Assembly (NCBI GenBank): GCA_043817155.1 | Contig: JBDRHE010000075.1 | Location: 1-60,588, forward strand | Reading direction: 5' to 3' | Length of the DNA stretch: 60,588 nt | From: Candidatus Omnitrophota bacterium | Lineage (GTDB): Bacteria; Omnitrophota; Gorgyraeia; JABMRN01; RBG-13-46-9 | Shown here: positions 3,744 to 56,995 of the stretch, in pieces | How positions within the stretch are numbered: the stretch's first letter is position 1 | Layout: each line of letters opens with the position of its first letter | Made by a program: the position numbers and the translations under genes | The notes under the pieces: model-generated | Seen by the model: the letters and a program-made list of their open reading frames with translations, nothing else | Database searches by the model: none | What the model was told of the DNA's origin: nothing

Positions 3744-3962
3744 CTCGAAGGACGCACGTTACGATAGACGAAGGACGATTCGTGATTCCTCGTCTTTGCG
3801 AAGTGCCGTAATATACTAAGCGCACTGAAGCATCTCAAACTAGCTCGAATGAGATTGCCTGCCTGCCCGCCAAAGCTTTTAAATGGCAGGCGGGCCTGCC
3901 AGTATATTTCGGGCAGGCAGGCTTCGGCACGCTCGAATATTCCGGTGCCTCGCAAAGACGAG
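3741..3962. repeat. Composite: GACGAAG-type arm, then F1 inverted repeat (3789-3962) with a 64-bp CCTGCCTGCC...GGCAGGCAGG hairpin at 3858-3921
   Basis: ctcgtctttgcga...gaagca and gagattg[insert]cttcggcacg...tcgcaaagacgag arms; the insert is identical to 7750-7813 and 7869-7932. Confidence 0.95.
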
Positions 3963-3990
3963 GGAAGCATATAAGAAGCAGGAGAAGAAT

Positions 3991-4476
3991 ATGGACAAAT
4001 TTACGCTTTCAGTATTGGTTGAGAATAAGTTTGGAGTTCTGGCTCGGATCGCGGGCCTTTTCAGCGCCCGTGGGTTCAATATCGATTCACTCGCCGTGGC
4101 AGAGACGGAGGATCCTACCATGTCACGGATGATCATGGTCGTTTCTGCGGACGCGAAGACGTTGGAGCAGATAAAGAAGCAGCTGAACAAGGTTATCGAT
4201 GTTATAAAGGTTATAGACCTTACCAAGAAAGATTACATCGATAGGGAGCTGGTTCTTATCAAGGTGAAGATCGATAGCAAGACAAGGGACAAGGTGATTC
4301 AGGTTGTGGACAGTCTGAACGCCAAGGTTGTAGACATGGGAAAGGATTTTCTCACGGTTGAGGAAGTGGGCGACGCCAATAAGACAAGCGCAACGCTGGG
4401 GCTCCTTAGGTCTTTTGGGATAACCGAGATAGTTCGCACAGGAAGGGTTGCTATACAGGCAGCGGAAAAAAAATAG
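3991..4476 (+). CDS. ilvH: Acetolactate synthase small (regulatory) subunit
   Basis: From ATG 3991 (GGAGAAG RBS): LSVLVENKFGVLARIAGLFSARGFNIDSL ACT domain. The ORF-track start at 3883 lies inside repeat DNA. Confidence 0.95.
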   Translation: MDKFTLSVLVENKFGVLARIAGLFSARGFNIDSLAVAETEDPTMSRMIMVVSADAKTLEQIKKQLNKVIDVIKVIDLTKKDYIDRELVLIKVKIDSKTRDKVIQVVDSLNAKVVDMGKDFLTVEEVGDANKTSATLGLLRSFGITEIVRTGRVAIQAAEKK

Positions 4477-4800
4477 ACAAAAGTCTACAGACTATAGACT
4501 AGAGACTAATGTGAGTAAGAAGGTTTCTTAAGGTTTCATAAAGTTTCTTGACGTTGCTTAAGGTTGCAAGACGGAAATGGGATACGTTAATGGACGAAGG
4601 ACGATTCGAAGGACTTAGAGAGCTATAAGTCATAAGCCGTAAGCTATAAGTAATGTGATATGATTTGAGCTTATAGCTTAAGGCTTAGAGCTTAAAGCTG
4701 TTAGTACAAGATATATACTATTGAAATACAGTTGAAAATACTTGGAACATTCCGAAGCTATAAGAGACTATAGTCTTTGGTCTGTAGTCTATGTTCTATG
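4477..4800. repeat. Nested composite: outer AGACTAT/TAGTCT arms (about 4478-4510 and 4766-4795) around a GTTTCTTAAG 10-mer arm, a GACGAAG arm, an AGCTATA palindrome and a TTGAAATAC run
   Basis: Read directly; 4592-4730 is repeated at 10881-11019 with 5 mismatches. Confidence 0.9.
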
Positions 4801-5833: not shown

Positions 5834-6121
5834 GCTACGATAGACGAAGGACGTGGGACGATTCGCTCTATCTCGTCTTTGCGAGGTGCCGTAAATAAAT
5901 TAGCGCACCGAAGCAAACTTCTGTCATCCCCGCGCAAGCGGGGATCCAGAGTGAACTCGTTGAGAGTGCATCCATGGATTCCCGCTTCCGCGGGAATGAC
6001 AACTTTAGATTGCTTCGGCACGTTCGAATATTCCGGTGCCTCGCAAAGACGGATAGGAGAAGATCTAATCGTCCATCGTCCAAGCGACCGTAAGGGAGCG
6101 GACGTCCGTCGTCCTTCGTAA
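5834..6121. repeat. Three-layer composite: GACGAAG arms (5834-5862, 6067-6121) around F1 arms (5872-5915, 6007-6050) around an F2 GTCATCCCCGCG...CGGGAATGAC palindrome (5923-6000)
   Basis: Each layer is bounded by its own inverted arms; a small extra hairpin-like insert gcgaccgtaagggagcg sits in the right outer arm. Confidence 0.95.
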
Positions 6122-7654: not shown

Positions 7655-7998
7655 AACGCAGATCGGCACAGGCTGTATTTCTCGTCTTTGCGAGGTGCCG
7701 TAAATAGCTGAGCGCACCGAAGCAATCTCAAACTAGCTCGATGAGATTGCCTGCCTGCCCGCCAAAGCTTTTAAATGGCAGGCGGGCCTGCCAGTATATT
7801 TCGGGCAGGCAGGCTTCGGCACGCTCGAATATTCCGGTGCCTCGCAAAGACGAGGAAAGATGAGATTGCCTGCCTGCCCGCCAAAGCTTTTAAATGGCAG
7901 GCGGGCCTGCCAGTATATTTCGGGCAGGCAGGCTTCGGCACGCTCGAATCTTACGGTGCCTCGCAAAGACGAGTTAAGCATCTGCGCTCATCTGTGTT
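7655..7998. repeat. CACAGAT/ATCTGTG outer arms around F1 with a tandemly duplicated right arm, each copy carrying the 64-bp insert
   Basis: F1 left arm 7681-7729; right arms 7743-7854 and 7862-7973. Confidence 0.95.
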
Positions 7999-8866: not shown

Positions 8867-9633
8867 TAATTATAGCTCTATTTATCGCAGGTACAATCAT
8901 AGGCAGCTTCATGAATGTATGTATTTACAGGTTGCCCGGAGGTGAGTCCATAATAAAGCCGCGGTCGCGGTGCATCTCTTGTGGTAAAGCGATAGCATGG
9001 TTTGACAACATTCCCATTTTGAGTTTCCTTGCGCTGCGTGGCAGGTGTAGATCCTGCAAGAAGACGATCTCCATCAGGTATCCGATAGTCGAGATCATAT
9101 CAGGGATTATGTGCGCTTTGCTCTTTACGTACTTTGGATTTACAGCAAAGTCTTTTATACTCCTGGTCTTTTCGTGCGCGCTTGTCGTAGTGTCATTTAT
9201 AGACTTTGCTATCCAGGAGATACCGGATGTTATCACATTGCCCGGCATTGTCATAGGATTGATATCGGCAGCGCTCTTTCCGTCTCTGGTAGGCAGCCCC
9301 GATAATATATCTGCATTCTTCAACTCTTTTCTGGGGGTCCTGGCCGGCGGAGGAACGATATACATACTTGGATTTGTAGGCGAGTTTATATTTAAGAAAG
9401 AGGCAATGGGCGGGGGCGACGTTAAGCTCCTGGCGATGATAGGCGCGTTCATCGGGTGGAAACTGGCCATATTTACCTTCTTTTTGGCACCCTTCTTCGG
9501 CGCTGCAGTGGGGATCACACTGAAGCTAAAAGATGGCAGGGAGATAATACCCTACGGCCCATATCTTTCGCTTGCAGCTATCGTTGCAATATTTTACGGC
9601 GATGCGGTTATTGGGAAACTGTTTATTCTGTAA
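8863..9633 (+). CDS. pilD: Prepilin peptidase
   Basis: GSFMNVCIYRLP, two CxxC pairs, IDFAIQEIPD, MGGGDVKL and IPYGPYL. Start placed at ATG 8863, overlapping the aroE stop. Confidence 0.93.
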   Translation: MIIIALFIAGTIIGSFMNVCIYRLPGGESIIKPRSRCISCGKAIAWFDNIPILSFLALRGRCRSCKKTISIRYPIVEIISGIMCALLFTYFGFTAKSFILLVFSCALVVVSFIDFAIQEIPDVITLPGIVIGLISAALFPSLVGSPDNISAFFNSFLGVLAGGGTIYILGFVGEFIFKKEAMGGGDVKLLAMIGAFIGWKLAIFTFFLAPFFGAAVGITLKLKDGREIIPYGPYLSLAAIVAIFYGDAVIGKLFIL

Positions 9634-9696
9634 GTAGCGAGTAGAGAGTAGCAAGTAGCGAGAATTTCGCTAATCTCTACTTGCTACTCGCTACTT
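9632..9696. repeat. AGTAGCG/AGTAGAG 7-mer periodic palindrome (F5)
   Basis: agtagcgagtagagagtagcaagtagcgaga, loop, ctctacttgctactcgctact; also at 27912, 37289 and 40861. Confidence 0.93.
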
Positions 9697-9728
9697 TCGA
9701 AATCATTTGTTATAGGAAGGAGTCCAGT

Positions 9729-10865: not shown

Positions 10866-11361
10866 GCTACGTAAGACGTGGGACGAAGGACGATTCGAAG
10901 GACTTAGAGAGCTATAAGCCATAAGCCGTAAGCTATAAGCAATGTGATATGATTTGAGCTTATAGCTTAAGGCTTAAAGCTTAAAGCTGTTAGCACAAGA
11001 TATATACCATTGAAATACATTGATATGCAATTGAGATACATTGAAATACGGTGGATGATATGTACTACTCGTCTTTGCGAAGTGCCGTAAATAAGTTAGC
11101 GTACCGAAGCAATGCTCCACTCGTCTTTGCGAGGTGCCGTAATATACTAAGCGCACTGAAGCATAATTTGTCATTCCCGCGCAAGCGGGAATCCATGGAT
11201 GCACTCTCGATGAGTCAACTCTGGATCCCCGCTTTCGCGGGGATGACATGTGAGAAATAAGGGAATGACACGATATGAAGGTATCCACGGCGATTATTTA
11301 CATGGAAATAAATGGAAGATCTAATCGTCCATCGTCGGCACGTCCGTCGTCCTTTGTAACG
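10866..11361. repeat. About 500-bp composite: GACGAAG arms around an AGCTATA palindrome, a 10-mer TTGAAATAC run, two F1 left arms (11068-11113, 11120-11163) and an inverted F2 (11170-11247)
   Basis: Read directly; each module recurs elsewhere in the window. Confidence 0.93.
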
Positions 11362-15795: not shown

Positions 15796-16146
15796 CTCGA
15801 AGGAGTAACGTTACGACGGACGTAAGACCCTCCTTCGCTTGGCAGGAAGAATCTCATGGAAGTGGGCTACGGAGGGCAAGTGTGGGAAGAAGGACGATTA
15901 GCGCTATCTCGTCTTTGCGAGGTGCCGTTAATAGGTAAGCGTACCGAAGCAATTTGTCATTCCCGCGGAAGCGGGAATCCAGGCGGAAATGACAAATACA
16001 TTAGAAAGATACACTTCTGGATCCCCGCTTCCGCGGGGATGACAGAATAGTGGAGATTGCTTCCTCCTTCGCCACATTGCTTCTGCGTGTGGCTTGGGAG
16101 AGACAAGCCGGCACGTTCGAATTTTCCGGTGCCTCGCAAAGACGAG
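15793..16146. repeat. Composite: GACG-type arm with a REP-like insert (15829-15881), F1 left arm (15908), F2 (15956-16043) and F1 right arm with a second REP-like insert (16064-16109)
   Basis: The interrupted host motifs can be rebuilt from intact copies (cgtaagacgtgggacg at 10870; gagattgcttcggcacg at 17619/44222). Confidence 0.92.
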
Positions 16147-16183: not shown

Positions 16184-17461
16184 ATGATAATATACGACAT
16201 ATTTTTCTTCGCCTTTTCGATCGTTTACCTTCCGTACATGATCATAAAAGGGAAGGCGCACAAGGATCTTGGCCAGAGGTTCGGAAAGCTGCCGGAAGCG
16301 TTTAAAGCTCTAGGCAAGACGAACCCTGTGTGGATACACGCTGTAAGCGTGGGGGAAGTCATCGCGGTAAAGAACTTCATAGGAGCTATACAGCGAAAAT
16401 TTCACGGAAAAAAGATCATCCTTTCAACTACGACGAGAACCGGTAATGAGATCGCGCGAAAAATACTGGGCGACGAGATATTAAAGTTCTATTTTCCGCT
16501 GGATTTCAGCTTCATTGTGAAACGCGCATTGGACTGTCTTAACCCTAGGTGCTTTATCATGATGGAGACCGAGATCTGGCCGAATCTCATTTTAGAATTG
16601 GCCGAAAGAAAGATACCCATTATTCTTATTAACGGCCGGATATCCAGGAGATCATTTGGTGGATATAGCAGGATAAAAATATTTTTTGAAAAGATCTTAA
16701 AAAAGGTGGATCTATTTTGTATGCAGACTGAAAGCGACGCTCGACGCATACAAGCCCTGGGTGCGCGCGAAGAGAATATAAGGGTATCCGGTAATATGAA
16801 ATTTGATATTCCTCTAACGGGCGAAAAATACGAGAAGACAAAAGCGGCTCTCGGGATAGACGAAGAGAGCCAGCTTCTTATAGCCGGAAGCACCCATAAA
16901 GGCGAAGATGAGATCATTCTTGAGGCATATAAGAGGGTCGCACGTAAATTTAATAATTTAAGGCTGCTTCTTGCTCCAAGGCACATAGACCGGTCACGCG
17001 CCATCAAAAGGCTCGTTACACGATATGGATTTCACGGCGAATTCTTCTCGGATGTTGTCTCATCTTCCGCAGTGTCGGAAAATAAGGAAGCTGTCCTGAT
17101 CTTAGATACGCTGGGAGAACTTAGCAAGCTTTATAGCCTGGCAACTATCGTATTTATGGGAGGCACCTTTGTGAAGAGAGGAGGGCACAATATCATAGAG
17201 CCCGCGGTATTTGGTAAGCCTATCCTCTTCGGGCCGCATATGTTCAATTTCAGGGATATGGCGAAGTCCTTCCTGGAAGGGGATGCGGCCATTAGGGTTA
17301 GGGATGGCCATGAATTATCGGAAGTAATAGAAGGGCTCTTAAAGGATAAAGATAGGAGATCGGCCTTAGGAGAGAACGCATTAAGGCTACTTAGGAGATC
17401 GCGGGGCGCTACCGAGAGGAACATAGCGGCGGTCGGACCGTATATAACGAAGATTTTGTGA
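16184..17461 (+). CDS. waaA: Kdo transferase
   Basis: WIHAVSVGE, METEIWPN, IAGSTH, LAPRH and GGHNIIEPA. Start placed at ATG 16184 because the ORF-track N-terminus is repeat-derived. Confidence 0.95.
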   Translation: MIIYDIFFFAFSIVYLPYMIIKGKAHKDLGQRFGKLPEAFKALGKTNPVWIHAVSVGEVIAVKNFIGAIQRKFHGKKIILSTTTRTGNEIARKILGDEILKFYFPLDFSFIVKRALDCLNPRCFIMMETEIWPNLILELAERKIPIILINGRISRRSFGGYSRIKIFFEKILKKVDLFCMQTESDARRIQALGAREENIRVSGNMKFDIPLTGEKYEKTKAALGIDEESQLLIAGSTHKGEDEIILEAYKRVARKFNNLRLLLAPRHIDRSRAIKRLVTRYGFHGEFFSDVVSSSAVSENKEAVLILDTLGELSKLYSLATIVFMGGTFVKRGGHNIIEPAVFGKPILFGPHMFNFRDMAKSFLEGDAAIRVRDGHELSEVIEGLLKDKDRRSALGENALRLLRRSRGATERNIAAVGPYITKIL

Positions 17462-17514
17462 GATATACTTTCTGTACAGTCACCACGTTACCCGTTAACG
17501 GAAGATTCACACGT

Positions 17515-17757
17515 TATGACGGACGATGGACGAAAGACGATGGACGATTCAATTCCCTCGTCTTTGCGAGGCACCGTAAAATTCGAGCGTGCCGAAGCAA
17601 TCTCATTCGAGCTAGTTTGAGATTGCTTCGGTGCGCTAACCTGTTTACGGCACCTCGCAAAGACGAGATAGCGCGAATCACCCTTTGTCCCTCTTCCATC
17701 ATCCATCTTAAGTTTACTATTAAATTCACGTCTCATGTGTCTTGTGTCCTTGTGTCG
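17515..17757. repeat. GACGATG arms around an F1 in the opposite orientation (17557-17667), plus a CTTGTGTC arm
   Basis: The ggcac/gtgcc arm comes first and the ggtgc/gcacc arm second; empty loop. Confidence 0.92.
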
Positions 17758-17780
17758 TAGATAAAAATAGGGTTTGCATT

Positions 17781-26753: not shown

Positions 26754-26866
26754 AAAAACCAAAGACCAAAAGGTAAAAACCAAAAACACATATTAAATAT
26801 GAAAAAATATTTTTTTTGCATTTTTGGTTTGTATTTTTGGTATTTGGTATTTAATTTTTAATTTTT
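26754..26866. repeat. AT-rich AAAACCA/TTTTGGT periodic palindrome (F7)
   Basis: Second copy at 31775-31905; shared core aaaacacatattaaatatg. Confidence 0.88.
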
Positions 26867-26879
26867 CGATAATTCGATC

Positions 26880-27917
26880 ATGAAAGACTATAAGCGTATA
26901 TTAATAGTCGAGGTAAACTGGCTGGGGGACGTTCTATTCTCCACCCCGCTCGTAAAGGCGATCCGCAAAAAATATAAAAACGCCTATATAGCCTGCATGG
27001 TTGTTCCCCGTTGCAGGCAGATCCTGGAATACAGCCCGTACATCGACGAGATCATAACCTATGACGAAAAAAAAACGCACAGAAGCTTGTTCGGTAAAAT
27101 ACGTTTGATCGCTATTCTGAGAAGAAGAGATTTCGATCTTGCTATACTGCTGCACAGGTCCTTTACAAGGGCCCTTATTGCGATGCTTGCGGGTATAAGG
27201 GAGCGTATCGGCTACATAACGGAGAAGGGACACAGGATGCTTACGCGCCCGATAGAGCCGCCCGAATCCCCGGTTCACAAGGTGGAGTATTTTTTGAAAC
27301 TGGCCGAGTCACTGGGATGCGATATATCTAATAAGGATTATGATTTTTTTATTAGCGACAGAGAGAGAGATCACATAAATAAGGAACTCTCTTTGGCCGG
27401 GATCGAAAAAGAGGACCTTCTGGTTGTAGTGAACCCGGGCGGCAATTGGCGATCAAAGAGGTGGAGCGAAGACAATTTCGCAAAGCTCTGCAAGGCGCTG
27501 TTTGAAAAATTTAATATAAAGATCGTGATATCGGGAGCGAAGAAGGATGTAGAGCTTGCTTCGCGAATAAAGGAGAAAGCAGGTCCTGATATATCGGTCT
27601 TTGCCGGCAAAACGGACCTAAAAGAACTGGGCGCTCTTATGGGGAGGGCCAATTTTGTTATTTCAGCCGATTCAGGACCTATGCATATAGCTGTAAGTAT
27701 GGGGTCGAATGTAATAGCTCTCTTTGGACCGACTTCTCCCGAGCTTACCGGTCCTTACGGGAACGGTAACTACAGGGTGATCCGGAAGAATACGGAGTGC
27801 GAAACCCCGTGTTACGACGTAACGTGTAATGACCATAGGTGCATGGATTCTATAACTGTAGAAGATGTGCTGGAGACGTTTGAAGAGATGTACTGTGCAC
27901 AGATGGGAAAGAAGTAG
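26880..27917 (+). CDS. waaF: GT9 lipopolysaccharide heptosyltransferase II-like protein
   Basis: VNWLGDV, HKVEYF, NPGG, KRW, DSGPMHIA and LFGPT. Confidence 0.85.
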   Translation: MKDYKRILIVEVNWLGDVLFSTPLVKAIRKKYKNAYIACMVVPRCRQILEYSPYIDEIITYDEKKTHRSLFGKIRLIAILRRRDFDLAILLHRSFTRALIAMLAGIRERIGYITEKGHRMLTRPIEPPESPVHKVEYFLKLAESLGCDISNKDYDFFISDRERDHINKELSLAGIEKEDLLVVVNPGGNWRSKRWSEDNFAKLCKALFEKFNIKIVISGAKKDVELASRIKEKAGPDISVFAGKTDLKELGALMGRANFVISADSGPMHIAVSMGSNVIALFGPTSPELTGPYGNGNYRVIRKNTECETPCYDVTCNDHRCMDSITVEDVLETFEEMYCAQMGKK

Positions 27918-27980
27918 AGAGTAGCAAGTAGCAAGTAGCGAGAAGGACTCTCTCTACTCTCTACTTGCTACTCGCTACTT
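27912..27980. repeat. F5 AGTAGCG periodic palindrome
   Basis: Matches 9632-9696; contains the stop codon of the upstream gene. Confidence 0.93.
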
Positions 27981-27989
27981 AAAGAAAAT

Positions 27990-28979: not shown

Positions 28980-29370
28980 GACGAAGGATGATTTGACGAT
29001 ACCGGAAATACGATTGATATACAATTGAAATACATTGAAATGCGATGGAGATACGATTGAAATATGGTGGAAATGCAATCGAAGCTACATTACTCGTCTT
29101 TGCGAGGCACCGTAAATAGCTGAGCGCATTAAAACGACTTCTCTTCGTCTTTGCGAGGAACCTATGAAAGCTTTATGTTCCGAAGCAATCTCAGACTTCT
29201 GTCATCCCCGCGCAAGCGGGGATCCAGAGTGAACTCGTTGAGAGTACATCCATGGATTCCCGCTTCCGCGGGAATGACAACTTTAGATTGCTTCGGCACG
29301 CTCGAATCTTACGGTGCCTCGCAAAGACGAGGGAAAATCTAATCGTCCATCGTCCGTCATCCATTGTAAC
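28975..29370. repeat. Composite: GACGAAG arms around a 10-mer TTGAAATAC run, two F1 left arms (29093, 29145), F2 (29201-29278) and an F1 right arm ending at 29331
   Basis: The F2 plus right arm is nearly identical to 5923-6050. Confidence 0.93.
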
Positions 29371-30445: not shown

Positions 30446-30652
30446 GGCGAAAGAGAAGGAGAGTCTTCTTCAGGCTTAGGCATAAAAGATTATGCTAAGA
30501 TTCTCTCTTCTTGCCTCTTTAATAAGGCGATCGTCGGTTTTTAAGGAAATGCCGTAAGCCAAGACATACGTATACCTGGAATACCGACTCTCACCTTGTA
30601 AAGAGACAAAGAGAGAATATGCGCCTGAAGAAGACTCTCCTTCTCTTTCGCC
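30446..30652. repeat. 207-bp long hairpin element, copy 1 (perfect 30-bp terminal inverted repeat)
   Basis: 30446-30475 is the exact reverse complement of 30623-30652; the inner arms also pair; homologous to 56796-56995. Confidence 0.9.
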
Positions 30653-30763: not shown

Positions 30764-31777
30764 ATGAAAGGACAAAATTTCAAGAAGCTGAAGAGCGTTA
30801 TTTCCAACTTTAATGACAAGAAGATACTTGTCATAGGGGACCTTATCCTGGATGAGTTTATATGGGGAAAGGTCTCTCGCATATCGCCCGAGGCGCCCGT
30901 CCCGATTGTCTGGGCGCAGAGCGAGAGCTTCATGCCGGGCGGAGCTTCTAACGTTGCAAACAATATAAATTCGCTTGGCGGCAAGGCTTATATGGTAGGT
31001 GTGGTTGGCAATGATGACCGTGCAGGCATCTTAAAAGGGGAGCTTGAGCGCAGGGGTGTTAATGTGGATGGTATATTTTCGGATGCCCAAAGGCCCACGA
31101 TCCTTAAAACACGGGTAATAGCCCATCAGCAGCAGGTTGTCCGTATTGACCGGGAAAAGACAGAGCCTGTAAGCGACCGGATATTAAGGAAACTTACGGA
31201 CTACATAGAGAACATAATAGACAGCATGGATGCGCTGATCGTGGAAGACTACGGGAAAGGGTTAATTACCCCGAAGCTTCTCGATAAGATAGTACCCCTG
31301 GCGAAGAGAAAGAAGAAGATCATAGCTGTCGATCCCAAGGAAGAGCACTTCTCTTTTTACAAGGGAGTTACGCTCTTAACCCCGAATAACGCGGAGGCTT
31401 CCCGCGCTGTAGGATTCGAAATAAAAGACAAAGCAACGCTAAAGAGAGCCGGCAGTGAACTTCTGAAAAAGCTAAAAGCGCGCATAGTTCTGATCACACT
31501 CGGTGAAGATGGGATGATGCTGTTTGATGACGGGAAGCCGGCCAGGAAGATAGAGACCATTGCCCAGGAAGTCTTCGATGTCTCAGGAGCCGGCGATACC
31601 GTTATAAGCAGCTATACTCTTTCACTGATTTCAGGCGCCAGTACGATCCAGGCAGCTCATATTGCCAATTGCGCTGCGGGGATAGTCGTAGGCAAGGTCG
31701 GTATAGCCGTCGTGACTCAGGACGAGGTCATTATGAGGATTAAAGAGGAGATCGAAAAGCCGAGGGAACGAACTTAA
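30764..31777 (+). CDS. rfaE1: D-glycero-beta-D-manno-heptose-7-phosphate kinase (RfaE domain I)
   Basis: GDLILDEF, RISPEAPVP, PGGASNVA, TPNNAEA and DVSGAGDTV. Confidence 0.93.
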   Translation: MKGQNFKKLKSVISNFNDKKILVIGDLILDEFIWGKVSRISPEAPVPIVWAQSESFMPGGASNVANNINSLGGKAYMVGVVGNDDRAGILKGELERRGVNVDGIFSDAQRPTILKTRVIAHQQQVVRIDREKTEPVSDRILRKLTDYIENIIDSMDALIVEDYGKGLITPKLLDKIVPLAKRKKKIIAVDPKEEHFSFYKGVTLLTPNNAEASRAVGFEIKDKATLKRAGSELLKKLKARIVLITLGEDGMMLFDDGKPARKIETIAQEVFDVSGAGDTVISSYTLSLISGASTIQAAHIANCAAGIVVGKVGIAVVTQDEVIMRIKEEIEKPRERT

Positions 31778-31905
31778 AACCAAAAACCAAATACTAAAAA
31801 CAAAAAACACATATTAAATATGTAAAAACTTGGTAAATTACAAATTAAAGATTTTAAAATTTTTGGTTTGTGTTTTTAACTTTTGGTATTTAATTTTTAA
31901 TATTT
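31775..31905. repeat. F7 AT-rich periodic palindrome, copy 2
   Basis: Homologous to 26754-26866. Confidence 0.88.
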
Positions 31906-31943
31906 CATTAAAGCTACACAAGCTGTAAAGAAAGGTTAGAGCA

Positions 31944-34535: not shown

Positions 34536-34850
34536 AAGCTACGAAGGGCGTGGGATGATTAGCACTATCTCGTCTTTGCGAGGTGCCGTAAATAAATTAG
34601 CGCACCGAAGCCCCGCCGCATGTTTCGCATAGCGGGATCCCGCCATACGAGAGTAACGGCGGGACAATCTCAAACTTCTGTCATCCCCGCGAAAGCGGGG
34701 ATCCAGAATAGGCGCGTAGAGAGTCCATCCATGGATTCCCGCTTACGCGGGAATGACAAGATGCATTAACCTGAGAATACTTCGGCACGCTCGAATCTTA
34801 CGGTGCCTCGCAAAGACAGTTAGGTTAATATCTAGTCGTCCATCGTATCG
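34536..34850. repeat. Composite: GACG-type arms around F1 (34569-34817), with a 54-bp double hairpin in the left arm (34611-34664) and F2 (34680-34757) in the loop
   Basis: cgaag[cccgc...gcggg a tcccgcc...ggcggga]caatctc. Confidence 0.92.
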
Positions 34851-37288: not shown

Positions 37289-37422
37289 AAGTAGCAAGTA
37301 GAAAGTAGCCCTTCGCTTCGCTCAGGATCCCTCGAAGAATTCATCGAAGGATCCCGAGAGAATCGAGGGAGAAGTAGCGAGAATCTCTCTACTCTCTACT
37401 CTCTACTTGCTACTCGCTACTT
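37289..37422. repeat. F5 palindrome interrupted by a CCCTTCGCTTCGCTCAGG...TCGAGGGA hairpin cassette (about 37309-37370)
   Basis: Compared with intact F5 copies at 9632 and 27912. Confidence 0.88.
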
Positions 37423-37437
37423 TCGGAAAGAGATGTT

Positions 37438-39250: not shown

Positions 39251-40069
39251 ATGCGCATTTTCAGGAAGAGATTGTTTGTATATACGATGCTTCTATCCAT
39301 ACCCGTAGTGGCGATCAGCTATTCCAATAAGAGTGTCCCGGCCCCAAATGCGGTCGGACCGGCGGATAGTCTAACGGAGGAGATGTCCGGGATTGAGCGC
39401 TCTTCCGGGCATGAAGGAAAGATCAATGTAAAGCAGGAGGTCCATCTCTTTAAGGTGGAGGCTTTTAACAAGGAAGCGAAGGCGCAGTGGGGCTTAGAGG
39501 GTGAATCGGCCAATGTCGTCCTGGATAAGATAAACATCAAGAACCTTAAAGCTACTTACAATGGTGACGGCATTACATTTACGATCTCAGCGGATAAGGC
39601 GATTTACGACAAAAGCACGCTGGATATCGAGCTTAATAACAATATCATAGCAGTGACGTCCGATGGCGGCGTACTTGTAACGGATTATGCCAGATGGGAC
39701 TCGAAGGCAGAAGAGATACAGACCGACTCCCATGTTATTGTAAGAAGAGAGAATATAACCTGCTTGGGCAGGGGCATGGTTTCAAAGCCGCGTCTTAAGC
39801 TTGTAACTCTCCGCGAAGATATTGAAGTGAAGATAGCTCCGGATAAGGTGATAATATGTGACGGTCCATTCGAGGTAGATCACAAGAAAAGTGTAGCAAT
39901 TTTTAATAACAATGTTAGAATTACGGATAAAGATAGCCAGACTTATACCGATAAGCTCACGGTCTACTTGAATCCCGAAACCAACGAGGTCAGCCGCATC
40001 GTTACGGAAGGCAATGTGAGAGTGGTCCACACAGGGGACGTAACCGGTATGGGGGAGATGGCTTTCTAG
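39251..40069 (+). CDS. lptC: LptC-like protein with an extra C-terminal LptA/OstA-like domain
   Basis: N-terminal membrane anchor, ADKAIYD...NNIIAV and IQTDSHVIV (LptC-like), then FNNNVRI...DKLTVY...EGNVRV (LptA-like); directly upstream of lptB. Start uncertain (GTG 39191 or ATG 39251). Confidence 0.75.
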   Translation: MRIFRKRLFVYTMLLSIPVVAISYSNKSVPAPNAVGPADSLTEEMSGIERSSGHEGKINVKQEVHLFKVEAFNKEAKAQWGLEGESANVVLDKINIKNLKATYNGDGITFTISADKAIYDKSTLDIELNNNIIAVTSDGGVLVTDYARWDSKAEEIQTDSHVIVRRENITCLGRGMVSKPRLKLVTLREDIEVKIAPDKVIICDGPFEVDHKKSVAIFNNNVRITDKDSQTYTDKLTVYLNPETNEVSRIVTEGNVRVVHTGDVTGMGEMAF

Positions 40070-40109
40070 CAACTAGCATTTTACGCTATACGTAAATTAC
40101 GGAGCAACC

Positions 40110-40832
40110 ATGCATTTATTAGAGACTCAAGGGCTGATCAAATCATACGGCGGCAGACGTGTCGTAAACGGCGTTGATATAAACGTAAAACGCGGTGAGG
40201 TGGTTGGGCTTCTCGGTCCGAATGGCGCCGGCAAGACGACTACGTTTTATATGGTTACGGGCATAATCGCTCCTGACAAGGGAAAGATAATATTTGACAG
40301 AAAGAATATTACGAATATATCCATGCATCACAGGGCAAGGAGTGGTATAGGCTATCTTTCGCAGGAGCCATCAATATTCCGGAAGCTGACGGTTGAGGAG
40401 AATATACTGGCAATTCTTGAGACCCTGGCCTTTCCGAGGAAAGAACGTAAGCGCCGGCTCGATGAACTTCTTGAGGAGCTCAGGATATCGCATCTTAGGA
40501 AGAGCAAGGCGTATACGCTTTCAGGCGGAGAGAGAAGGAGGCTTGAGATAACACGCGCGCTTGTAACAAACCCCATGTTTATACTATTGGATGAACCGTT
40601 CAGCGGAATAGACCCTATTGCCGTATATGACTGCCAGGAGGTCATTAAAGAGCTGAGAGAGAAGAATCTGGGGATCCTTTTAACGGACCACAATGTCAGA
40701 GAGACCCTGGCCATAACGGACAGGTCCTACCTCATGTGTGATGGGAAGATATTGATATCGGGCAGTAAAGATGAGCTCATAACGAATCCCAAAGCGCGCG
40801 AGATATATCTTGGAGAACAATTTACGATGTGA
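40110..40832 (+). CDS. lptB: LPS export ABC transporter ATP-binding protein
   Basis: GPNGAGKTT, YLSQEPSIFRKL, LSGGERRR, LDEPFSGIDP and TDHNVRETL. Confidence 0.96.
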   Translation: MHLLETQGLIKSYGGRRVVNGVDINVKRGEVVGLLGPNGAGKTTTFYMVTGIIAPDKGKIIFDRKNITNISMHHRARSGIGYLSQEPSIFRKLTVEENILAILETLAFPRKERKRRLDELLEELRISHLRKSKAYTLSGGERRRLEITRALVTNPMFILLDEPFSGIDPIAVYDCQEVIKELREKNLGILLTDHNVRETLAITDRSYLMCDGKILISGSKDELITNPKAREIYLGEQFTM

Positions 40833-40860
40833 TATAATTTGTCTTCCGATAATACACGTA

Positions 40861-41034
40861 AAGTAGCGAGTAGAGAGTAGCAAGTAGCAAGAAAGACTCA
40901 CTCTACTCTCTGCTTGGCATTTTGAAGGATACGCTAAAAGAGATATATATACACAGATGAACAAGTAAGTAGCGAGAAGAGAGTAGCAAGTAGCAAGAAA
41001 GACTCACTCTACTCTCTGCTTGCTACTCGCTACT
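40861..41034. repeat. Two direct F5 copies separated by a 49-bp diverged copy of the aminotransferase 3' end
   Basis: 40912-40960 matches 44052-44100 at 46 of 49 positions. Confidence 0.92.
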
Positions 41035-41050
41035 TTAAAAAGAATAAAAA

Positions 41051-42322
41051 ATGAAGACGAGAATAAAGAACGTAGAAGATTGTACAAAAATATTGCAGGT
41101 AGAAATACCTGTAAACCTGGTCAAAGAGATGACAGAAGAGGTCTATAAGGAGATCAAGAAAGTCGCGAAGGTGCCCGGGTTCAGGACCGGGTTCGTGCCG
41201 CAGGATCTTCTCGAGAAACACTATTCGAAAGATGCCAGGGAAGATATTCTGAAAAGACTCATTCCCGAAGGCTATAAAAAGGCCTTAGAGAACCACAATG
41301 TTTCGCCTGTGAGTTTCCCGCGCGTCTTCAACATCAATTTTGAATCGGAAAAGCCGCTTACCTTTGAGGCCCAGGTCGACACCAGGCCGAGCTTCAAGTT
41401 GAAGAGCTATAAAGGCATAAAGGTCAAAAAGAAGAGGCTATCAGTTTCGAGCGAAGAACTTGATAGCGCGCTCTCTAGGTTGCAGAATACGAACGCAAAG
41501 TATAATGATGTCAAAAGGCCGATAGGGAAGGGAGATTACTCTGTTTGCGAGGTCGAGGCGTTTATTGATGGAAGATCGATAACCAAGAAGAACAAGAACA
41601 TGTGGATCATGGCGGATAAGGAAGGATCGATGCTCGGGCTTGGCGAAGAGCTTGTGGGCATGGAGAAGGGACAGACTAAAGAGATCGAGGCGAAGCTCCC
41701 GGATGATTATCCGGATAAGAAGTACGCCGGGAAGACCGCAAAGTTCAAGGTGCTTGTAAATGAAGTTAAGGAGAAGGATCTGCCGCCGCTTGACGACAAT
41801 CTAGCAAAGAGTATCAACATAGAGAGCCTGGACCAGCTAAAGAAAGAGATAGAAGCTCAACTTTTCGCGCGTAAGGAGATGAATCTAAAGATAGAGATGG
41901 AGAGTCAGATCATAGACAGACTCCTTAAGGATTATAAATTCTCGGTTCCGGCCAGCATGGCGGATAGGCAGAAGGAGGTTTTATCCAAGAGGATGGAATA
42001 TGAGCTTTCAAGGAGTGGTATTCAAAAAGACGATGTGGAAAAGAGAATCAAAGAATTGGATCCAAGGTTAAAGGAAGACGCCAAAGATAAGGTCAAGATA
42101 TATTTTGTCCTGGATGATATAGCAGCGAAGGAAGATATAAAAGTAGATGAGGCGGATATCGAAAGTCGCCTTACGTCTGTAGCCCAGTCTACGGGACGAT
42201 CTGTCGAAGATGTTAAAGAGCATTATGAGAAAGAGGATCTACTGGGTGGTTTAAGCGAAGAGATCAAGGAGGCCAAGGTCCTGGAATTCCTGCTCAAAGA
42301 AGCGGACGTGACTGAAGAATGA
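41051..42322 (+). CDS. tig: Trigger factor
   Basis: [10 protein letters not shown] ribosome-binding motif, FKBP-like middle domain with [17 protein letters not shown]; tig-clpP synteny. Confidence 0.95.
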
Positions 42323-42327
42323 ACATC

Positions 42328-42392
42328 GGTGTACCAATCACCAGCGCACCTGGATAATCCGGTGCTCCGGTGTTCTGGTGCTCTGGTGCACT
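42328..42392. repeat. 8-mer periodic palindrome (CACCAG versus CTGGTGCT/CCGGTGTT)
   Basis: ccggtgct ccggtgtt ctggtgct ctggtgca facing accaatcaccagcgcacc. Confidence 0.8.
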
Positions 42393-42410
42393 ATTGATAA
42401 GGAGGTAAGC

Positions 42411-43010
42411 ATGAGTATACTGGTACCCATGGTAATTGAACAGACCGGAAGATCGGAACGCGCATATGACATCTACTCAAGACTTTTAAAGGACAGGGTG
42501 GTATTTATCGGCACGCCTATCGATGATAATATCGCCAATATAATAATAGCGCAGTTACTCTTTTTACAGATGGAGAATCCGGAAAAAGATATAGACCTGT
42601 ACATAAACACGCCGGGGGGTCACGTTACGAGCGGCCTGGCCATCTATGATACTATGCAATTCATCAAGCCGGACGTAAACACATATTGTGTCGGACAGGC
42701 TGCCAGCATGGGTGCTGTGCTCCTGGCTGCCGGCGCTAAGGGAAAGCGCTATGCCCTTCCGCACGCGCGCATCATGATCCATCAACCCTGGGGTGGGGTG
42801 CAGGGAGCAGCCTCGGATATAAGCATTCAGGCACAGGAGATACTGAGGCTTAAGGACAGTATCGAGTGCATCATCGCAAAGCACACGGAGCAGCCGATGG
42901 ATAAGATAAAGAAGGATACCGACAGGGACTACTTCATGTCAGGCGAAGAGGCCAAGAAATACAAAATAGTGGACGAAGTCATTGAATCGGTAAAGGAGAA
43001 CAAGAAATAG
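42411..43010 (+). CDS. clpP: ATP-dependent Clp protease proteolytic subunit
   Basis: [25 protein letters not shown] and IMIHQP; RBS AGGAGG, ATG 42411. Confidence 0.97.
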
Positions 43011-43014
43011 AAAA

Positions 43015-44100
43015 ATGAAGAAACATTACCTGCTAACTCCCGGACCTGCGCAGATGCCAGAAGATATTTTGGAGAGCATGGGAAGGCCCATAATACATCA
43101 CAGAACCCAGCAATACAGGGATATTGTTAAGTCCGCGAACGAGAATCTTAAGAAGGTATTTAAGACCACCAGGAACGTGCTGACCTTTACTTCGAGCGGA
43201 ACAGGCGCCATGGAAGCAAGCGTGGTCAACACGCTTTCGAAAGGTGATACGGCAATAGTGGTAAGGGGCGGAAAGTTTGGCGAGAGATTCGATGAGATAT
43301 GCCGGGCTTACGGTGTCGAGGTAGTTGTCGCTGATGTTACGTGGGGCGAAAGGCCTGAAGCGCGGACCATAGACGTTCTACTACAGAAGCATCCTGATAC
43401 GAAGGCCGTGTTTATGCAACTGTGCGAAACCTCAACAGCTACCGTATACGATGTGGAAGCGATCGGTAAGGTTGTAAGCAAGACCCCAGCCATTCTAGTA
43501 GTCGATGCGATAAGCGGCCTGGGATCCGATGAATTCAAGATGGATGAGTGGAACGTGGATGTCGCTATAGGCGGATCGCAGAAAGGATTTATGCTACCAC
43601 CCGGCCTTTCTTTCTGCGCGGTAAGCGAAAAGGCCTGGAACCTGGTTAAGAAGTCGACACTCCCTAAGTACTATTACGATTTTTTATTCTACGAGAAACT
43701 TATGGGTAAATCCGACAGCCCGTTCACGCCCGCCATAACGCTCGTTATCGGTCTGGAGAAAGCAATGTCTGCGATCGTGGCTGAAGGGGTGGACGCTTTT
43801 ATCAGAAGGCACCGGGAAGACGCCCGGTACGTGCGTGAGACTATCAAAGAGATGGGACTTACGCTCTTTTCCAGGTTTCCGTCAGATGCTGTTACGGCCG
43901 CAAATATACCGGGCCCGGTAGATGGCGCTAAACTACTAAGCTCGCTTAAGTCTAAAGGCGTTACGCTGGCAGGCGGACAGGCTGAACTTAAAGGTAAGAT
44001 CTTTAGGATCGCTCAGATGGGCGGTATTACTCGAAAGGATTTAGAATTCGCGCTTGGCATTTTGAAGGATACGCTGAAAGAGATATGGATACACAGATGA
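43015..44100 (+). CDS. Class V PLP aminotransferase (serine-pyruvate/alanine-glyoxylate type; probably the phosphoserine aminotransferase role next to serA)
   Basis: LLTPGP, SSGTGAMEA, CETST, VDAISG, GSQKGFMLPPG and SPFTP. Confidence 0.9.
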   Translation: MKKHYLLTPGPAQMPEDILESMGRPIIHHRTQQYRDIVKSANENLKKVFKTTRNVLTFTSSGTGAMEASVVNTLSKGDTAIVVRGGKFGERFDEICRAYGVEVVVADVTWGERPEARTIDVLLQKHPDTKAVFMQLCETSTATVYDVEAIGKVVSKTPAILVVDAISGLGSDEFKMDEWNVDVAIGGSQKGFMLPPGLSFCAVSEKAWNLVKKSTLPKYYYDFLFYEKLMGKSDSPFTPAITLVIGLEKAMSAIVAEGVDAFIRRHREDARYVRETIKEMGLTLFSRFPSDAVTAANIPGPVDGAKLLSSLKSKGVTLAGGQAELKGKIFRIAQMGGITRKDLEFALGILKDTLKEIWIHR

Positions 44101-44452
44101 GCACAGATGGGTAAGCTACGAAGGACGATGGACGAAGGACGAAGACGAATTGTAATTGCTCGTCTTTGCGAGGAACTTATGAAAGCTTTATGTTCCGAAG
44201 CAATCTCAAACTAGCTCGAATGAGATTGCTTCGGCACACTCGAATTTTACGGTGCCTCGCAAAGACAGGGTTAGATGAGATTGTCCCGTCACACGCAAGT
44301 AGCGTCGGGAAAGAAGAAAGCAAGCCAAAGTCTATAGTCTTCAGTCTGTAGTCTTTAGTCTATAGTCTGGCTTAGAGCTTAAGGCTAAATTTAATTTATT
44401 AGAATTCTGCGTCATTCGTGTTTAAACGTTAGATCTGTGCTAATCTGTAGTT
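44088..44452. repeat. Composite: CACAGAT outer arms around a GACGAAG arm, F1 (44159-44266), an orphan GAGATTG plus TCCCG...CGGGA hairpin (44284-44310), and TAGTCT and GCTTA arms
   Basis: Read directly. Confidence 0.9.
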
Positions 44453-47411: not shown

Positions 47412-49362
<1,951 letters not shown>

Positions 49363-49540
49363 GTCACAGATGAGCGCAGATTTTATTACAAGGCACTGTA
49401 ATACTCGAAACGTGACTAAGTAATTCCTGATTCGTCTTTGCGAGGCACCGAAATATTCGAGCGTGCCGAAGCAATCTCTGCGAGCTAGTCTGAGATTGCT
49501 TCGGTGCGCTAAGTGATTTACGGCACCTCGCAAAGACGAA
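49363..49540. repeat. CACAGAT arm plus an empty F1 in the inverted orientation (49431-49540)
   Basis: Same arrangement as 17557-17667. Confidence 0.92.
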
Positions 49541-51717: not shown

Positions 51718-51952
51718 TAGTTTAGCTTTCTAGCTTCTTAGCTTTTTAGCTTTTTAGGAAATTGTAGAAGTTTATTATCGATCAGAGCTTTAGCTTCTTA
51801 GCTTACTAGCTTTTTAGGAAATTTAATGTGAACAGAATCTTACCTAATAAGCTAACAAGCTAGGAAGCTAAGAAGCTAAAACGTTAATCAACTCAACCTG
51901 AGAAGCTAAAAAGCTAATGCTCTAAGTAGCTAGAATAGAAGCTAAAGCTCTG
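51718..51952. repeat. Double periodic palindrome (TAGCTTT/TAGCTTC versus AAGCTAA 7-mers)
   Basis: Two left arms (51718-51757, 51783-51817) and two right arms (51843-51880, 51898-51952). Confidence 0.9.
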
Positions 51953-56795: not shown

Positions 56796-56995
56796 AGAGA
56801 CAATGGGGCATTATTTTAAGGCTCAGCATAAAATGTTATGCCAAGATTCTCCCCTCTTGTCTCTTTATAAGGTGATCGTCGGATTAAAGGAATTGCCGTA
56901 AGCCAAGGCACACGAAAACCTGGAATACCGACTCTCACCTTGTAAAGAGACAAAGAGAGAATATTCGCCTTAAAAGAACGCCCCATTGCCTCTCT
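56796..56995. repeat. Long hairpin element, copy 2
   Basis: 46 identical nt with copy 1 (56919-56964 equals 30575-30620); its own terminal arms match each other at 24 of 27 positions. Confidence 0.88.

Follow-up and report, generated by a model that had tools for sequence, protein, structure and literature searches.

An aminotransferase gene end inside an intergenic hairpin of an uncultured Omnitrophota bacterium: a candidate templated insertion between lptB and tig

Introduction

How did the 3' end of an aminotransferase gene come to lie between two copies of a heptamer-repeat hairpin, in the spacer that separates lptB from tig? The question is raised by a contig of 60,588 nucleotides from a Candidatus Omnitrophota bacterium (JBDRHE010000075.1, assembly GCA_043817155.1), which was analysed over its whole length, is called the window here and supplies all coordinates unless a related locus is named. 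A previous interpretation from the letters of the contig (the sequence-only reading) had proposed that template switching or repeat-mediated capture moves flanking host DNA between loci and thereby produces repeat-spacer-repeat units. Here, we show that the fragment was copied from the aminotransferase gene into the spacer, that it lies inside what is best read as a single original hairpin and that it is the only fragment of its kind in the window, and we weigh the processes that could have placed it there.

The window represents core chromosome of this uncultured bacterium. All 49 likely genes scanned with Pfam are housekeeping genes, among them ilv/leu, aro, dprA-topA-xerC, LPS and Kdo, que, lptC/A-lptB, tig and clpP, as well as the aminotransferase, serA, purA, H+-pyrophosphatase, dxr, rseP and ispG genes, and none of the 49 is a cas, transposase, RAYT or reverse-transcriptase gene.

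Results

A composite locus between lptB and tig

In the window the spacer between lptB and tig measures 218 nt and contains a truncated copy of the F5 hairpin (F5a), the gene fragment (the scrap) and a complete copy of the hairpin (F5b). The features on which the argument turns are the following.

40110-40832, forward strand: lptB-like ABC ATPase gene, upstream neighbour (Pfam ABC_tran, 1e-37)
40833-40860, forward strand: 28-nt spacer from the lptB stop to F5a, with a TATAAT inside that is part of a promoter-like match
40859-41037, forward strand: whole composite, with an outer stem formed by 40859-40887 and 41009-41037
40861-40916, forward strand: F5a, truncated F5 hairpin copy with left arm, loop and a right arm that reaches only to ...CTCTGCTTG
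40912-40916, forward strand: GCTTG microhomology at junction J1, common to the F5 right arm and the aminotransferase gene
40912-40963, forward strand: the scrap, an orphan, non-coding aminotransferase 3' end of 15 codons, a stop and 3 nt
40961-40966, forward strand: zone of junction J2, ACAAGT, at which the donor-derived sequence gives way to the F5 flank
40967-41035, forward strand: F5b, complete F5 hairpin (RNA MFE -30.9 kcal/mol for 40961-41040)
41051-42322, forward strand: tig (trigger factor), downstream neighbour (Pfam Trigger_N, Trigger_C)
42378-43010, forward strand: clpP (Pfam CLP_protease, 3e-84)
43015-44100, forward strand: class-V aminotransferase gene, the donor (serC-like, followed by serA; Pfam Aminotran_5), at the same position in six relatives
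44052-44103, forward strand: donor segment, matching 40912-40963
44092-44108, forward strand: hairpin arm CACAGATGAGCACAGAT, which gives the aminotransferase its last codons and stop and within which the copy ends

The scrap was copied from gene to spacer

BLAST within the window finds the match between scrap and donor at an E value of 7e-16. As the sequence-only reading had described, an F5 copy breaks off and 49 nt (40912-40960) follow that equal the end of the aminotransferase gene (44052-44100) at 46 positions; with the match extended to 40963 and 44103, 48 of 52 positions are identical. The "last 16 codons" of that description holds if the stop is counted, the strict content being 15 sense codons and a stop. 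Scrap and gene differ at 40936 (A in the scrap, G in the gene), 40947 (A/G) and 40948 (T/G) and, beyond the stop codon, at 40961 (A/G). Up to the stop, the scrap translates as LGILKDTLKEIYIHR and the gene end as LGILKDTLKEIWIHR, and the two segments are spaced 3140 nt apart. A coding role for the scrap was considered and rejected: its frame is open for only 28 codons, it has no start codon upstream, and TTG, the sole start-type codon, is internal to the scrap.

The orthologous aminotransferases of related loci (numbered L001 to L008) terminate in ...LEFALGKLKETLEEL (L001 and L005), ...LDKLKETLGEEK (L006) and ...LEFALGKLKEALKEQNLKV (L007), each followed by a stop, and the conserved C-terminus that the scrap encodes reads LGKLKETLEEL before the stop in L001 and L005 and LGKLKEALKEQ... 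in L007. Because the orthologues end in ...LEFALGKLKETLEEL at the same place, the scrap is genuine aminotransferase coding sequence; GCGCTTGG, which also occurs in the L007 orthologue, is thus native to this gene. The six relatives have no aminotransferase paralog between lptB and tig, so the intact gene is the donor. Its last four codons (WIHR, then the stop) are absent from the orthologues and coincide with the CACAGAT arm, which pairs with 44433-44448 as inverted repeat I12 and in which, as had also been recognised correctly, the donor match ends. The orphan holds the WIHR part; it was therefore copied after the arm had become part of the gene, and the direction of copying is from gene to spacer. 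The arm belongs to an over-represented motif family, its motif CACAGATG having 8 occurrences against 0.98 expected.

The flanking hairpins are twins within one outer stem

The left arm of F5a is built of four tandem heptamers of GTAG type (AGTAGCG/AGTAGAG/AGTAGCA), the heptamer array covering 40861-40891. With a start-to-start spacing of 106, F5a (40861-40916) and F5b (40967-41022) are identical at 55 of 56 positions, the sole difference being a T at 40871 against an A at 40977. Past ...CTCTGCTTG, where F5a ends, F5b goes on with CTACTCGCTACTT and completes the hairpin. The loops of the two copies are identical, and their mutual identity of 98% compares with 85-93% to other F5 copies; moreover, both carry the GCTTG that is peculiar to this F5 locus, the other copies reading ACTTG. 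This near-identity, the common loop and the locus-specific GCTTG therefore identify F5a and F5b as local duplicates and not as two independent insertions.

TAAAGTAGCGAG, the left flank of F5a, and CTCGCTACTTTA, the right flank of F5b, are perfectly complementary, and the best long inverted repeat (I1) joins 40859-40887 to 41009-41037 over 29 nt with 83% complementarity. Folded as DNA, the composite reaches -29.1 kcal/mol (z -3.4). Since this outer stem spans from the F5a left flank to the F5b right flank, it defines an original single hairpin, and on these sequences the locus is best read as one such hairpin with a 106-nt internal insert, which would comprise the gene scrap and a re-copied left part of F5 up to GCTTG. 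The sequence-only reading was right that a complete F5 copy follows the scrap, but its repeat-spacer-repeat capture misread the anatomy, as the twins belong to one stem and the insert sits within it. With the scrap lying between close twins and the outer stem preserved, the second repeat would have been made by the very event that brought the scrap.

Upstream of F5a and F5b, the flanks CCGATAATACACGTAAAG and CAGATGAACAAGTAAG look alike, but too weakly and with too much dependence on gaps for the resemblance to be used. Rfam returned nothing at gathering level for the whole window and, for 40800-41080, only miRNA-precursor matches far below threshold, which are generic hairpin noise. A promoter-like site at 40811-40838 (TGGAGA-16-TATAAT with an upstream TG, 10 of 12 matches), a consensus match only, overlaps the lptB stop; if this promoter is real, the composite of F5a, scrap and F5b would be part of the 5' leader of the tig mRNA.

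Both junctions fall in hairpin arms

At J1 the F5 right arm and the aminotransferase gene share the 5 nt GCTTG. This microhomology, already pointed out in the sequence-only reading, is real, and a length of at least 5 nt arises at only 0.57% of 200,000 random junctions drawn from the window; the sequences support a left junction that was probably microhomology-mediated. At J2, by-eye comparison of the F5a flank ACACGTAAAGTAGCG, the F5b flank ACAAGTAA-GTAGCG and the donor GAGCACAGATG gives a microhomology of at most 2-3 nt (CA/ACA) and an ambiguous breakpoint. Both switch points lie inside hairpin arms.

The inserted sequence has templates in the same region, the gene end (48/52) and F5a (55/56). 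Against these two templates the inserted block shows about 7 differences in 106 nt, roughly 6%, and the divergence of its two halves (1/56 and 4/52) does not differ significantly (Fisher p = 0.19). Differences at this rate imply error-prone synthesis or considerable age, so that the event cannot be dated.

lptB and tig are neighbours in the relatives

Six related loci (L001, L002, L003, L005, L006 and L007) share the order lptB-tig-clpP-aminotransferase-serA, within a fuller order of acyltransferase-(lptC/A)-lptB-tig-clpP-aminotransferase-serA-HMGL synthase. Their lptB-tig spacers measure 12 nt (L001, L005 and L006), 15 nt (L007), 64 nt (L002) and at most 69 nt (L003), and the short locus L008 also has 15 nt; the lptB C-terminus ...EIYLGEQFTM, followed by the stop, is conserved in all relatives. 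Judged by this synteny, the comparison shows the adjacency of lptB and tig to be ancestral and the 218-nt spacer to be specific to the lineage of the window. Trigger-factor relatives in genome and metagenome collections are 41-64% identical, and the best hit of a protein search reaches 68%; the named closest relatives are labelled Candidatus Omnitrophota, bar one MAG deposited as 'uncultured Planctomycetia'. With 68% as the best identity, the relatives are too distant to polarise the differences or to reveal an intermediate.

The scrap is the only gene end among the spacers

If gene 3' ends were captured repeatedly, as the sequence-only reading had envisaged, further examples should be found among the spacers. 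We compared all intergenic spacers of at least 25 nt (about 35) with all ORFs of the window by BLAST, and the scrap is the only genuine match to coding sequence; the other matches are of repeat families to repeat-derived pseudo-ORFs (10974-11288 and 17458-17760) or to over-extended gene starts. The same test on eight related loci yielded no gene-end scrap. Repeated capture thus found no second case, and the event is isolated within the available sequence, of which the 60 kb are a small sample; that it belongs to a recurrent, element-linked mechanism is doubtful.

Repeat families elsewhere in the window

Further copies of F5 occur at three sites.

9628-9702, forward strand: solitary F5 copy
27912-27986, forward strand: solitary F5 copy, preceded by GCACAGATGGGAAAG and containing the stop codon of the upstream heptosyltransferase gene
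37289-37423, forward strand: F5 copy split by a 62-nt palindromic insert

In the third copy, the palindrome (GGATCCCTCGAAGAATTCATCGAAGGATCC core) sets off the left arm (37289-37309) and the outer stem is kept. This nesting has the same architecture as 40861-41035, but the insert is another repeat and not gene DNA. An F5 remnant 3' of the aminotransferase gene, as for a recombination between two F5 copies, was also considered and rejected; only one AAGTAGCG unit lies near 44300, which is too short.

Many intergenic spacers hold hairpins with arms of 3-6 tandem heptamers (or 8-10-mers), often nested, and the arm units differ by family (AGTAGCG, GGACGAT, AGCCATA, AGCTTAA, AAAACCA/TTTGGTA, AGTCTAT and others). 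Examples are 1-30, 1808-2041, 4473-4699, 9633-9696, 17521-17548, 26754-26866, 27912-27980, 31776-31909, 37289-37421, 44118-44368 and 51721-51879. The closest relatives (tig 66-68% identical) have 12-15-nt spacers or overlapping genes at such places, for instance at queE/queF and lptB/tig, and given these near-zero spacers the expansion of hairpins is lineage-specific. Hairpin arms also provide genes with stop codons and short C-terminal tails (44089-44100; 27898-27917; L001 5770-5800): the CACAGAT arm encodes the final WIHR and the stop of the aminotransferase, F5 contains the TAG that terminates the heptosyltransferase gene (26880-27917), and the stop of the L001 orthologue lies in a GAGCTAT-repeat arm.

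A 119-nt palindromic element is present at 3849-3967, 7741-7859 and 7860-7978, that is, at two loci 3.9 kb apart and in tandem at the second; the 97-99% identity of its copies points to what would be very recent repeat activity. Two non-coding segments of ~150 nt (30482-30640 and 56826-56984), about 85-87% identical, precede a PfkB-family kinase gene (30746) and ispG/gcpE (57449) in unusually long spacers of 337 and 818 nt, respectively. Neither has an Rfam match even at E<=1, and the pair may represent an undescribed RNA or regulatory element or simply one more repeat. Long palindromic elements TCGTCTTTGCGAGG...CCTCGCAAAGACGA, which start with CGTC, number 8-10 copies and occur together with GTCATTCCCGCG.AAGCGGGAATCCA hairpins (6+6 copies); such sites are 3789-3833, 5872-5916, 7681-7725, 11068-11164, 15908-15952, 17557-17667, 29093-29348, 34569-34837, 44160-44286 and 49431-49539. 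ORFs of 100-197 aa that have no Pfam match lie at 10974-11288 and 8925-9518 (both reverse strand), 17458-17760 (forward strand) and 47423-47830 (reverse strand). Those at 10974-11288 and 17458-17760 are for the most part composed of intergenic repeats and probably do not represent genes, and automatic annotation is likely to over-call such repeat-built ORFs in this genome.

Discussion

What process placed a gene end inside a hairpin? We favour a one-off templated insertion by two microhomology-guided template switches during replication or repair, and hold the chances of this account to be about even. A single F5 hairpin would once have stood between lptB and tig, and a growing strand would have copied its left arm, loop and right arm up to ...CTCTGCTTG before leaving the template, probably stalled or broken at the hairpin. 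Through GCTTG it may next have paired with the 3' end of the aminotransferase gene, which lies on the same strand 3.1 kb downstream, and been extended there by some 50 nt, up to the base of the next hairpin, the CACAGAT arm. A switch back with 2-3 nt of microhomology would have led to a point just upstream of F5, from which the whole hairpin would have been copied again. The product would be truncated F5, gene scrap and complete F5, a 106-nt insert within the original hairpin. We infer that both junctions stem from one event and that stalling at the hairpin triggered the switches. Of the template switching or capture proposed in the sequence-only reading, the switching stands as a good candidate mechanism; of a process that moves flanking host DNA between loci there is no sign. 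To us the scrap looks like a non-functional product of a single copying accident.

The same product can arise in two steps, an explanation that is a real possibility though a lesser one than template switching. A 3.14-kb tandem duplication of F5-tig-clpP-aminotransferase would have created the junction of gene end and F5. A later deletion, from the GCTTG of the first F5 to that of the first aminotransferase copy, would have taken away nearly all of the redundant copy, so that just the truncated F5 and the final 49 nt of the gene stayed behind. Bacteria frequently form tandem duplications, and this sequence of events predicts the exact order of F5a, gene end and F5b and the 3140-nt spacing, which the one-step model does equally. 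It also predicts the 5-nt microhomology, at its deletion junction, and the roughly 6% divergence of the duplicated block fits an old, decayed duplication. The orphan 3' fragment of a neighbouring gene and the duplicated flanks are likewise what a duplication scar would leave, but no intermediate is seen, and neither tig nor clpP has left a remnant in the spacer. As a rule, homologous recombination between the long copies collapses a tandem duplication precisely, without a scar. One-step switching and duplication with deletion give the same product, and one sequence does not separate them; template switching is preferred because the duplication scar needs two independent, rare illegitimate events and because of this usual precise collapse.

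Could the hairpins themselves be responsible? We give only a small chance to the idea that heptamer hairpins spread by replicative template switching from one hairpin to another, with no transposase, and that the scrap is a fossil of such a step that carried along the flank of its template. An element-mediated or copy-choice spread that regularly carries adjacent gene 3' ends, and so yields repeat-spacer-repeat units, we consider unlikely. The intergenic repeats are clearly active, as seen in the 119-nt copies that are 97-99% identical at two loci and in nested insertions; hairpin arms abut or overlap stop codons, so that gene ends are their natural flanks; and at two places, 27898 and 40952, an F5 array follows CACAGATG. 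However, regular capture sits poorly with the yield of the spacer comparison, a single coding scrap among about 35 spacers in 60 kb and no scrap in the eight related loci; the junction falls within an F5 arm at a locus-specific microhomology and not at an element boundary; and transposase, RAYT and reverse-transcriptase genes are absent from the window.

A chimeric join of F5 and aminotransferase sequence in the assembly or library of a metagenome, possibly with a second strain involved, appears improbable. The region is rich in repeats, and the only public run that holds the organism, from a biofilm metagenome, does so at about 4x: its contigs of 200-390 nt match the window at 100%, and none of them lies over 39869-41203. 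Exact-protein look-ups with tig, the aminotransferase and lptB returned no other contig, leaving this one as the only record of its proteins. Yet the join shares just 5 nt, far below assembler k-mers, so reads that bear the junction must exist, and the structure is coherent, with an intact outer stem. The three differences between scrap and gene, or four with the one beyond the stop, mean that the same reads were not used twice, and from the sequence they speak with reasonable force against a mis-assembly.

A remnant of an ancestral aminotransferase paralog, or the att duplication of an integrated element, is very improbable: a second copy of a gene 3' end within a few kb is a classic sign of gene-end integration, but six relatives have lptB and tig adjacent, with spacers of 12 to about 69 nt and no paralog, the interval between the copies is occupied by core genes in synteny (tig, clpP and the aminotransferase gene itself), none of them an integrase gene, the orphan lies upstream and not downstream of the intact gene, and the only integrase-family gene, xerC-like, is 25 kb off.

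The preferred template switching resembles a known process. Insertions templated from elsewhere and flanked by microhomology are a described signature of MMBIR (PMC8421209), and the locus shares with MMBIR/FoSTeS a short copy of a nearby template at a breakpoint, the 5-nt microhomology at J1, repeated switching and additional base changes close to the junctions. MMBIR/FoSTeS has been described mainly in yeast and human cells, with insertions that are often inverted and mostly templated within about 100 bp (PMC8421209); here, by contrast, the host is a bacterium, the orientation is direct, the template lies 3.1 kb away and the switch points, as read from the sequence, would fall in hairpin arms.

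F5 itself recalls REP/REPIN elements in being an intergenic hairpin 3' of genes, in several copies, whose arm heptamers all start with GTAG, and other families of the window carry CGTC; REP super-families bear GTAG or CGTC tags (PMC3733652). REPs, however, are 20-40 bp with one unpaired tag (PMC3733652), whereas F5 has about 70-75 nt with four tandem heptamers per arm, and the scrap junction is not at an element end. A REP/RAYT assignment of F5 was therefore rejected on the size of the hairpin and on a 60-kb window that has no Y1 transposase/RAYT gene. Two direct repeats around a unique segment of ~50 nt also bring CRISPR to mind, but the repeat is a 56-69-nt heptamer hairpin that occurs singly as well, and the 'spacer' comes from the organism's own DNA, 3 kb away. 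With just two copies (56 and 69 nt, the first truncated) and no cas gene among the 49 genes scanned with Pfam, a CRISPR array was rejected.

In conclusion, the locus is an ordinary mutational scar of an already known kind, in an unusually repeat-rich genome. In an uncultured bacterium, the scrap offers a clean natural case of either a duplication scar or a templated insertion flanked by microhomology; taken alone it matters little. The position of both breakpoints in hairpin arms is in keeping with the view that replication tends to go wrong at long intergenic hairpins. The scrap is chiefly of value for the context to which it points, in which spacers that measure 12-15 nt in the closest relatives have grown to 150-440 nt of nested heptamer-array hairpins, and if more gene-end scraps were to be found across the genome, they would have a bearing on how these hairpin elements multiply.
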